Sequence record: PQ349265.1
Source: Escherichia phage CJY920
Direction: 5' to 3' (one strand)
DNA: 64,000 bases
Positions 4,693 through 7,362 of the stretch are shown here, piece by piece. Numbering within the stretch: the first letter of the stretch is position 1; the number at the start of each line of letters is the position of its first letter. A program made the translations under genes and the position numbers. The notes beneath the pieces are model-generated. The model saw only the letters and a list, made by a program, of their open reading frames with translations. It was not told where the DNA came from and made no database searches.

Positions 4693-5721
4693 ATGTCATC
4701 AATACCTTGGATTGATAATGAGTTTGCATATCGTGCGCTAGCTCATTTACCTAAATTCGCACAAGTAAATAATAGTTCAACTTTTAAATTACGGTTTAGA
4801 TGTCCTGTTTGTGGAGATTCAAAAACCGACCAAAATAAAGCCCGTGGATGGTATTATGGTGATAATAATGAAGGAAATATTCATTGTTATAACTGTAACT
4901 ATCATGCACCAATCGGAATATATTTAAAGGAGTTTGAACCTGATTTATATCGTGAGTATATCTTTGAAATAAGAAAAGAAAAAGGTAAAAGTCGTCCAGT
5001 AGAAAAACCTAAAGAACTTCCTAAACAACCCGAGAAGAAAATAATTAAATCTCTTCCGTCATGCATTAGATTAGATAAACTGACGGAAGACCATCCAATT
5101 ATAAAATACGTAAAAGCTCGTTGTATTCCAAAGGATAAATGGAAATATCTTTGGTTTACAACCGAATGGCCTAAATTAGTTAATAGTATAGCACCAGGAA
5201 CATATAAAAAGGAAATACCTGAGCCTCGTCTTGTTATTCCAATTTATAATGCTAATGGAAAAGCTGAGTCTTTTCAAGGACGTGCATTAAAGAAAGATGC
5301 TCCTCAAAAATATATCACCATCAAAGCTTATCCTGAGGCAACAAAAATCTATGGAGTCGAACGGGTTAAAGATGGCGATGTATATGTTCTAGAAGGACCT
5401 ATAGATTCACTTTTTATTGAAAATGGTATAGCTATTACAGGTGGTCAATTAGACCTAGAAATTGTTCCATTTAAAGATAGACGCGTGTGGGTTTTAGATA
5501 ATGAACCTCGTCACCCTGACACTATTAAACGAATGACTAAATTAGTTGATGCAGGAGAAAGGGTTATGTTTTGGGACAAATCTCCCTGGAAATCAAAAGA
5601 TGTCAATGATATGATTAGAAAGGAAGGTGCAACCCCTGAACAAATTATGGAATATATGAAAAATAATATTGCCCAAGGGCTGATGGCTAAAATGCGGCTA
5701 TCTAAATATGCTAAGATTTAA
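4693..5721 (+). CDS. 61: gp61 DNA primase, 342 aa
   Basis: N-terminal Zn-ribbon CPVCGDS...CYNC, Toprim-like core; length as T4 gp61. Confidence 0.93.
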   Translation: MSSIPWIDNEFAYRALAHLPKFAQVNNSSTFKLRFRCPVCGDSKTDQNKARGWYYGDNNEGNIHCYNCNYHAPIGIYLKEFEPDLYREYIFEIRKEKGKSRPVEKPKELPKQPEKKIIKSLPSCIRLDKLTEDHPIIKYVKARCIPKDKWKYLWFTTEWPKLVNSIAPGTYKKEIPEPRLVIPIYNANGKAESFQGRALKKDAPQKYITIKAYPEATKIYGVERVKDGDVYVLEGPIDSLFIENGIAITGGQLDLEIVPFKDRRVWVLDNEPRHPDTIKRMTKLVDAGERVMFWDKSPWKSKDVNDMIRKEGATPEQIMEYMKNNIAQGLMAKMRLSKYAKI

Positions 5722-5918
5722 ATTAACCCAACCAAAGCAAATGTTAAATCTACGAATGTATCAAGAGTAATTACTGGAATACTAACGCCATGAGCAATAG
5801 CAACTGGCGATAAAACAAAATTCCAAAGTAAAATTCCTATCATAGCAGAAATAGTAAAAGCTATACGTTTTTTATTACCTTTGATGGCATTAACAAGTGC
5901 CATTAATTTTTGTACCAT
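5718..5918 (-). CDS. small hydrophobic (membrane) protein, 66 aa, on the opposite strand
   Basis: Strong SD (GGAGGA) 6-8 nt upstream of ATG on - strand; TM-like hydrophobic segments. Confidence 0.35.
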   Translation of the reverse strand: MVQKLMALVNAIKGNKKRIAFTISAMIGILLWNFVLSPVAIAHGVSIPVITLDTFVDLTFALVGLI

Positions 5919-5967
5919 GCGTCGTCCTCCTCTAAATTAAATATTTATCGCAAATTTTACAAAATTT

Positions 5968-5999
5968 GTTTACTTTCTCAGCTTGCTGTGGTATTATAA
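5968..5999 (+). promoter_or_regulatory. early promoter
   Basis: gtttactttctcagcttgctgtggtattataa. Confidence 0.5.
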
Positions 6000-6022
6000 A
6001 ATAAACTGCTGAGGATAATATA

Positions 6023-6583
6023 ATGATTAATAAAATTGTACATGAAATGGCTTTAAACGGAGATTCATATAAAATATCTGCCGTAGTTGAAAATTTCATA
6101 CTTAATAAAGTAAAAGAATATTTCACTGATTGTTCAGTTAGTTATCAAGAAAAAATGGTTTTAACCGACGATACTGAAAAATCAAATAATTTGTTTTGTT
6201 CGAATTTTACCACTAAGAAGCGTACTAGACGGTTTGATATTGTTATTGCTCGTAATGGTAAAAAGCATATAATTGAAATCAAACACCAAGTTGGTGGAGG
6301 TACAGCTATTGATTCGGTTGGAATATATTTAGAAGATAAAGATAAATTAAAAGAATACACAAAAACTGAAAATCCTGTGTCATTGATGATATTAGATTTT
6401 TTGCCATGCGGATATTATCCGCGTAATAAGTGGACAAAAAGAGAATCATTTACTGATAATCCAACCATCCAAGCAAGGTTTAATGAATATGCTAAATCAC
6501 AAAACGTGTTAGTATTACTATCAAATACATATGATGAAGAATTATATAATTCGTTTTTTGCTGCAATAAATGAGAGAATATAA
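6023..6583 (+). CDS. putative PD-(D/E)xK-type nuclease-like protein, 186 aa, translationally coupled to dam
   Basis: Motif [19 protein letters not shown] (D-x12-E-x-K); stop TAA overlaps dam ATG (TAATG). Confidence 0.45.
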
Positions 6584-7362
6584 TGCTAGGAGCTATTGCG
6601 TATACAGGTAATAAACAATCATTATTACCTGAACTTAAGTCTCACTTTCCAAAATATGACAGATTCGTGGATTTATTTTGCGGAGGTTTATCAGTATCTT
6701 TGAATGTCGATGGTCCTGTATTGGCTAATGATATTCAAGAACCAATTATTGAAATGTATAAACGTCTTATTAGCGTGTCATGGGATGACGTTTTAAAAGT
6801 AATAAAGCAATACAAATTATCAAAAACATCAAAAGAAGAGTTTTTGAAATTACGTGAAGATTATAATAAAACTAGAGATCCTCTTTTGCTTTATGTTCTT
6901 CATTTTCACGGGTTTAGTAATATGATTCGCATAAACGACAAAGGAAATTTTACTACTCCATTTGGAAAAAGAACCATAAACAAAAATAGTGAAAAACGCT
7001 TTAATCACTTTAAACAAAATTGTGATAAAATAATTTTTAGCTCATTGCATTTTAAAGATGTCAAAATTCTAGATGGCGATTTTGTATATGTGGATCCTCC
7101 GTATCTTATAACAGTCGCTGATTATAATAAATTTTGGTCAGAAGACGAAGAAAAAGACCTTTTAAATCTTTTAGACTCTTTAAATGACAGAGGAATAAAA
7201 TTTGGACTGTCGAATGTTTTAGAGCATCACGGAAAGGAAAACACTCTTCTTAAAGAATGGTCTAAAAAATATAATGTTAAGCATCTTAATAAAAAATATG
7301 TCTTTAACATATATCATTCCAAAGAAAAGAATGGAACTGATGAAGTATATATTTTTAATTAA
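6583..7362 (+). CDS. dam: Dam DNA adenine (GATC) methyltransferase, 259 aa
   Basis: SAM-binding FCGG motif and catalytic DPPY motif; length as T4 Dam. Confidence 0.93.

Follow-up and report, generated by a model that had tools for sequence, protein, structure and literature searches.

A gene for a predicted PD-(D/E)XK nuclease coupled to dam in a T4-like phage: a candidate type II restriction-modification cassette

We examined the region upstream of dam in a 64,000-nucleotide stretch of Escherichia phage CJY920 (PQ349265.1; here referred to as the window) and identified a 186-aa open reading frame (ORF), denoted gene X, which is predicted to encode a PD-(D/E)XK nuclease and whose stop codon overlaps the start of dam. 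We propose, with a probability of roughly 0.6, that X and dam, served by an early promoter of their own, constitute a type II restriction-modification cassette carried by the phage, in which X would cut unmethylated GATC and Dam would protect it. The cassette is probably GATC-specific.

The genes here make up the early block of a T4-like phage (Tequatrovirus), in the order gp61 primase (4693–5721), a 66-aa ORF on the minus strand, X, dam, gp56, an HNH gene and soc (Table 1). The nearest records, 97–99% identical, were Escherichia phages, e.g. LYE-01 and vB_EcoM-G28, in which X is labelled as a hypothetical protein. An earlier inspection of the letters (the sequence-only reading) had noticed the 186-aa plus-strand ORF, its nuclease-like signature and its overlap with dam, and had offered a nuclease/methyltransferase module, a defence or anti-defence cassette or a degraded mobile insert as explanations; re-reading the sequence confirmed the coordinates and length of the ORF.

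Table 1 Features of the X-dam region (positions are those of the window)
Feature	Position	Strand	Remarks
Small membrane protein gene, 66 aa, phrog_2024	5718..5918	-	PHROG match, E 4.6e-30
Presence/absence unit (early promoter, X and dam), ~1.43 kb	5933..7362		Alignment with cassette-less UFV-AREG1
T4-late-promoter-like element GATAAATA, 31 nt upstream of the 66-aa ORF ATG	5942..5949	-	Putative function
Segment deleted in T4, 549 bp (promoter and X codons 1–160)	5955..6503		Alignment with T4
Early-promoter-like site GTTTAC-17 nt-TATTAT, TG before the -10 hexamer	5968..5997	+	Consensus scan; putative function
Shine-Dalgarno sequence GAGGA of X, 7 nt 5′ of the ATG	6011..6015	+	Read from the sequence
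Gene X, 186-aa PD-(D/E)XK restriction-endonuclease-like protein, phrog_8706	6023..6583	+	
Codon of E23, invariant acidic residue in the first long helix	6089..6091	+	Model helix 15–33
Predicted catalytic beta-hairpin with D72...E85-I-K87	6236..6283	+	Adjacent model strands 66–77 and 80–88
Invariant H88-Q89 and G93-T-A-I-D-S98, candidate DNA-recognition element	6284..6316	+	Start of model helix 92–104
Run of six T	6554..6559	+	Five T in T2 and in the T4 remnant, frameshifting the last X codons
Shine-Dalgarno sequence GAGAGA for dam, within the 3′ end of X	6572..6577	+	
dam, T4-type GATC N6-adenine DNA methyltransferase, 259 aa	6583..7362	+	
dCTPase gp56	7424–7939		Downstream of dam

Gene X is linked to dam across distant lineages

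The linkage of X to dam is the strongest evidence for an X-dam module. X was found directly upstream of a D12-class Dam gene in all 11 lineages with known context, namely the window, G28, T2, Klebsiella phage KPV15 and seven metagenomic groups (29–99% identity to X), and in 10 of them the X stop and the dam start overlap or abut (0, 1, 4, 7, 20 or 35 nt). In the window, the TAA at 6581–6583 shares its final A with the ATG at 6583–6585 (TAATG), exactly as the sequence-only reading had described. In most of the 11 lineages, a purine-rich GAGAG element lies 5′ of the dam ATG, within the 3′-terminal part of X; the GAGAGA site of the window is annotated as the putative Shine-Dalgarno sequence of dam in the T4 record X01416. 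As in type II restriction-modification systems, the putative endonuclease gene adjoins the methylase gene and both share a predicted early promoter, which is annotated at the equivalent place in phage JB75 and is conserved in T2. No second methylase gene is annotated beside X-dam in the phages examined.

The Dam partner is well defined. It is 98% identical to T4 Dam, the same gene in the same position 5′ of gene 56, which in T4 has lost its X. It has matches to Pfam MethyltransfD12 (PF02086, E 1e-50) and to the T4 Dam structures already solved (1YFJ/1Q0S, E 1e-173), along with a remote one to DpnM (2DPM) from the DpnII system.

The X-dam pair was detected at three genome positions: between gp61 and gp56, in the gap between rIIB and the DNA topoisomerase gene (KPV15, Jiaodavirus) and immediately 5′ of rIIA in a T4-like contig from a metagenome; therefore, it behaves as a unit. 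At the gp61 locus, the primase, X and Dam are 60, 63 and 70% identical, respectively, to those of the metagenomic relative L013, and since the three diverged in parallel, the cassette is an old resident there. The sequences left of ~5933 and right of ~7362 are contiguous in UFV-AREG1, T6 and RB69; the left edge coincides with the Shine-Dalgarno sequence of the 66-aa ORF and the right edge with ATTGCTTTATAT, upstream of gene 56.

Gene X encodes a predicted nuclease from a very small family

X and the minus-strand 66-aa ORF are both real genes, beyond chance. The ratio of nonsynonymous to synonymous substitution rates (dN/dS) of X was 0.06–0.10 among Tequatroviruses and 0.17 in the comparison with a 63%-identical relative, showing purifying selection, and its reading frame is intact in relatives down to 29% identity; the corresponding ratio for the 66-aa ORF was 0.14–0.21, and this ORF is open in relatives at 27–30% identity.

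The family of X is tiny. A full HMMER search of 1.84 billion representative sequences gave 11 proteins, two word-indexed searches of 5.8 billion proteins gave 10 and 12, and wider searches, including IMG/VR, kept returning the same few phage and metagenome sequences. All members with visible context were in T4-like phage DNA, and no bacterial or archaeal relative was found in one genome each from 185,579 species. At the sequence level X belongs to a single family, phrog_8706 (function unknown there), and it had no match in PDB sequence searches or in NCBIfam. We found no description of the gene in the searchable full-text literature; the GenBank record of phage Shinka labels it as 'putative restriction endonuclease'.

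Four residues, E23, D72, E85 and K87, are invariant in the family alignment of nine sequences reaching down to 29% identity. Three of them form the D-x12-E-x-K signature which the sequence-only reading had proposed as catalytic, and which is indeed present as D72 (6236–6238), twelve residues and E85-I-K87 (6275–6283). X thus carries the superfamily motif (E)...D...(D/E)xK on the beta2-beta3 hairpin. The AlphaFold2 model (predicted local distance difference test score 80.7, predicted template modelling score 0.79) consists of a single nuclease domain with an alpha/beta core, in which a central mixed sheet is placed between helices, and its order of helix, three strands, helix and strand is that of PD-(D/E)XK nucleases. 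Among the Foldseek matches listed with a probability of ~0.8 or more, the recognised ones were PD-(D/E)XK or related nuclease domains. The structure search that had been suggested for X favoured a restriction-enzyme-type PD-(D/E)XK fold. We predict that X is a PD-(D/E)XK nuclease of restriction-enzyme type, and propose from the model that it may belong to the EcoRI/MunI-like branch of type II enzymes. Taken with the invariant D...E-x-K and the close linkage to dam in 10 of the 11 lineages, the predicted fold supports the nuclease/methyltransferase module among the options first offered.

A restriction enzyme was not top-ranked among the Foldseek matches listed, and the non-restriction nucleases Card1/Can2, Bax1 and McrC scored just slightly lower; VC1899, Mus81/XPF and R2 endonuclease domains were further neighbours. 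No structural similarity to MutH, of the MutH/Sau3AI group of GATC nucleases, was found. These neighbours, and the fact that the sequence match to any specific restriction family is sub-threshold, would also fit an active nuclease that serves a different purpose, e.g. host-DNA breakdown, recombination/repair or structure-specific cutting, and that shares an operon with dam but is not its partner in restriction. We consider such a role unlikely; like each of the other alternatives discussed below, it accounts for less of the dam linkage, and of the asymmetric loss described in the next section, than a restriction-modification pair does.

Distribution and loss of the cassette in T-even phages

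Full-length X was present in 154 phage records, ~8 of which hold distant non-Tequatrovirus homologues, and was contiguous with dam in 146, essentially all the Tequatrovirus copies. Neither gene was found in ~340 of the 495 Tequatrovirus records (~70%), e.g. UFV-AREG1 and T6, where the gene 56 promoter region comes straight after the small minus-strand ORF; RB69, from the sister genus Mosigvirus, shows the same empty arrangement. In ~35 records, T4 among them, dam occurs without X, and no record was found with X and without dam. The check for presence or absence in related phages therefore gave three states (neither gene, both, or dam alone), and finding methylase-only genomes but no nuclease-only ones is what one would expect of a restriction-modification pair. 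Outside this group, Slopekvirus and Krischvirus carry a dam 45–56% identical, at another locus and with unrelated upstream ORFs; those 5′ of dam in Slopekvirus KP27 and Krischvirus ECD7 were considered as candidate relatives of X and rejected, being unrelated and free of domain matches.

Alignment with T4 revealed how X was lost there. The deleted segment (Table 1) is flanked by the direct repeats ATCGCAAA (5947–5954) and ATCACAAA (6496–6503), and T4 retains the last ~26 codons of X, which hold the ribosome-binding site of dam; tblastn recovered only X residues 159–179. In T2, one T was lost from the run of six near the 3′ end, so that X is 181 aa long, ends 13 nt before dam and is uncoupled from it. 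As T6 has no cassette, an intact X is missing from all three classical T-even phages. The sequence-only reading, which had recognised neither of the two ORFs from T4, was right about X, deleted there except for its ~26 codons, and wrong about the 66-aa ORF, which is intact in T4 and unannotated. Its degraded mobile insert, likewise, describes T4 and T2 and not the window, where the gene is intact.

Upstream of dam in T4, record X01416 annotates a potential early promoter, P(E)17.40 (L002 2491–2519), which spans the junction equivalent to window positions 5954/6504. Its -35 element stems from the left flank and its -10 element from the 3′ part of X that T4 has kept, so that the deletion would have produced a hybrid promoter. 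In the metagenomic relative L013, a 93-aa nucleoside triphosphate pyrophosphohydrolase-like fragment (4010–4291, phrog_4856) lies between the small minus-strand ORF and X, which suggests a further rearrangement at this junction.

A clean presence/absence unit at three loci could also be the work of a homing-type selfish endonuclease, by which X would cut cassette-less relatives during mixed infections and repair would copy X-dam into them, with dam as cargo or self-protection. The region is rich in free-standing homing endonucleases (SegF in T4, the HNH gene at 7914–8765 in the window), and like X these SegF and Mob/HNH enzymes are optional nuclease genes placed between conserved early genes nearby. 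However, the known T-even homing enzymes have GIY-YIG or HNH folds rather than PD-(D/E)XK, lack a methylase partner and act by gene conversion instead of telling self from non-self through modification; X has no Pfam or PHROG match to a GIY-YIG or HNH domain, and its predicted fold is PD-(D/E)XK. Moreover, the parallel divergence at gp61 suggests long vertical residence rather than recent invasion, and ~70% of Tequatroviruses are still cassette-less. Homing is improbable on this evidence. It overlaps with the restriction-modification explanation, because restriction-modification systems can also act selfishly.

More doubtful still is a methylation-dependent, DpnI-like X, with Dam marking GATC in cytosine-containing DNA, X cutting the marked sites and the modified cytosines protecting the phage. 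Tight pairing with a methylase would equally fit such a mark-then-cut mechanism, and the Dam-methylated DNA of the E. coli host would be a ready target. On the other hand, the phage DNA is methylated by the same Dam, so that its protection would come entirely from cytosine modification, and methylase-only phages are viable while nuclease-only ones are absent, which is the classical restriction-modification pattern and not that of a modification-dependent enzyme. X also lacks a winged-helix domain for reading methylation such as that described for DpnI (PMC4081073). Least probable of all, and very unlikely in our judgement, is that X is a relic without catalytic activity, or that it binds DNA as a regulator or partner of Dam, in spite of T4 and T2 managing without an intact copy and of its shortness relative to the 278-position DpnII profile.

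Proposed function of the X-dam cassette

Under the restriction-modification explanation, X and Dam would be made together early in infection, with Dam translated from the X mRNA by coupling to the X stop. Dam would methylate GATC and so mark the phage DNA as self; according to the T4 record, Dam methylates GATC in DNA with modified as well as unmodified cytosine. X would then cleave GATC sites lacking N6-methyladenine, and unmarked DNA entering or residing in the infected cell would be cut. The candidate targets are T-even relatives without dam that arrive by co-infection or superinfection, other phages, plasmids and the DNA of dam-minus hosts. The presumed specificity for GATC is suggested by the partner, T4 Dam being a GATC methylase, and by weak, sub-threshold matches to the DpnII family.

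This explanation meets one difficulty. The DNA of E. coli is already Dam-methylated. The hypermodified DNA of T-even phages, in turn, is resistant to most type II enzymes (PMC7653180). A strict need for Dam would be easiest to understand if X attacks modified phage DNA, which would make the pair a weapon against dam-less T-even competitors. Perhaps X cuts GATC even with (glucosyl-)hydroxymethylated cytosine, and X-Dam destroys the dam-less T-even relatives, ~70% of Tequatroviruses including T6; we regard this stronger claim as possible and put it forward tentatively. If true, it would give T-even Dam a function and might account for the depletion of GATC across Tevenvirinae and its absence in Slopekvirus and Krischvirus.

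GATC was by far the most depleted tetranucleotide in the 64-kb window, with 67 sites observed vs 217 expected (observed/expected ratio 0.31; the next lowest was 0.62), and ratios of 0.08–0.36 were obtained for all Tevenvirinae samples, whether they carry the cassette or not. Since the depletion does not track the cassette, we did not count it as evidence for X. GATC was not depleted in Slopekvirus KP27 (0.94, 40 kb) or Krischvirus ECD7 (1.04, 5.8 kb), both of which have dam without X. For DNA enterophages, scarcity of GATC was reportedly described in the 1980s and put down to host Dam/MutH, which does not obviously explain the contrast between subfamilies that share the same hosts.

T4 Dam is among the best-studied DNA methyltransferases and is regarded as an orphan methyltransferase. 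Its function in vivo was still considered unclear in a 2025 review (PMC12707154). Our analysis indicates that dam came into T-even phages, or was kept by them, as the protective member of a nuclease/methylase pair. The loss of X from T4 may explain a methylase without a clear job and would recast T4 Dam as an orphaned modification enzyme, and the lack of an intact X in T2, T4 and T6 would explain why the pair went unnoticed. If active, X would represent a very small new family of restriction enzymes. Activity on modified DNA as well would make it a hitherto unrecognised means of phage-phage competition; as an ordinary GATC enzyme, it would be a more modest finding, one more restriction-modification system with an unusual carrier. 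About 150 sequenced phages carry an intact X, which makes the hypothesis directly testable.

Comparison with known restriction systems

The DpnII/MboI systems resemble X-dam in having a Dam/DpnM-type GATC methylase as partner and differ from it in that X-dam has the order nuclease then methylase, overlapping codons and a virulent phage as carrier. X scored 17.6 bits against the DpnII family (PF04556), below the gathering score of 23, and four of the nine X family members matched it, with a best E of 8.3e-5. X aligned solely to positions 152–233 of the 278-position profile, and the full-length architecture of ~280 aa is absent. The PADLOC model for type II restriction endonucleases also gave a weak match (best E 5.3e-6). 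Around nine plasmid-borne relatives of T4 Dam, the neighbouring genes encoded AlwI-family enzymes, one FokI-type enzyme or no endonuclease; as no DpnII enzyme was among them, the link to DpnII rests on the sub-threshold Pfam and PADLOC matches. The nearest of these plasmid-borne relatives (~38–42% identical) are AlwI-family/FokI-type type IIS methylases in Firmicutes, not DpnII-type. X itself was rejected as an AlwI-family enzyme, since hhalign against an alignment of five AlwI enzymes gave a probability of 0.2%.

The EIKHQ and GTAIDS segments of X resemble by eye the EAKHQ and GNAIER of EcoRI. The resemblance is not significant, with an hhalign probability of 0.2% and a hidden Markov model score falling within the distribution of 2000 shuffles, and what X has in common with MunI and EcoRI, of the alpha-branch of type IIP enzymes, is the fold match and the look-alike motifs. 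MunI and EcoRI recognise CAATTG and GAATTC, respectively, and are paired with different methylases. A lytic virus with a comparable gene content is the chlorovirus PBCV-1, whose CviAI system comprises a GATC-specific endonuclease and its cognate adenine methylase; PBCV-1 is a virus of eukaryotic algae, and its enzymes are thought to help degrade host DNA.

The minus-strand ORF and other neighbouring genes

The sequence-only reading had also drawn attention to a hydrophobic ORF with a strong Shine-Dalgarno sequence on the opposite strand, upstream of X. The 66-aa ORF is indeed preceded by GGAGGA and has one clear hydrophobic segment (residues 19–42). The T6 record calls it dam.1, whereas RB69 has it as ORF029w and JB75 as a 'putative membrane protein', and the T4 copy (L002 2276–2473), 91% identical, is the one left unannotated in AF158101. 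We considered it as a part of the X-dam module and ruled this out; because it is present in the cassette-less phages T6, RB69 and UFV-AREG1, it is independent of the cassette.

An xATAAATA element was found 27–31 nt 5′ of the ATG of this ORF in the window, T4, T2, UFV-AREG1 and L013, being a perfect TATAAATA in L013, and just a looser CTAAATA was found in L010. Judging from its orientation and from this late-promoter-like element, the ORF is most simply taken as an ordinary T4-type late gene lying opposite to the early block.

A terminator-like hairpin followed by TTTTTG was found at 5881–5906 on the plus strand, just 3′ of gene 61 and inside the 5′ coding part of the minus-strand ORF, and may end the gene 61 transcript. 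Downstream of dam, the gap between gp56 and soc is filled in the window by a gene for a 283-aa HNH/Mob-type homing endonuclease (7914–8765, plus strand; phrog_655, E 9e-34), which overlaps the end of gene 56, and in T4 by the unrelated GIY-YIG enzyme SegF.

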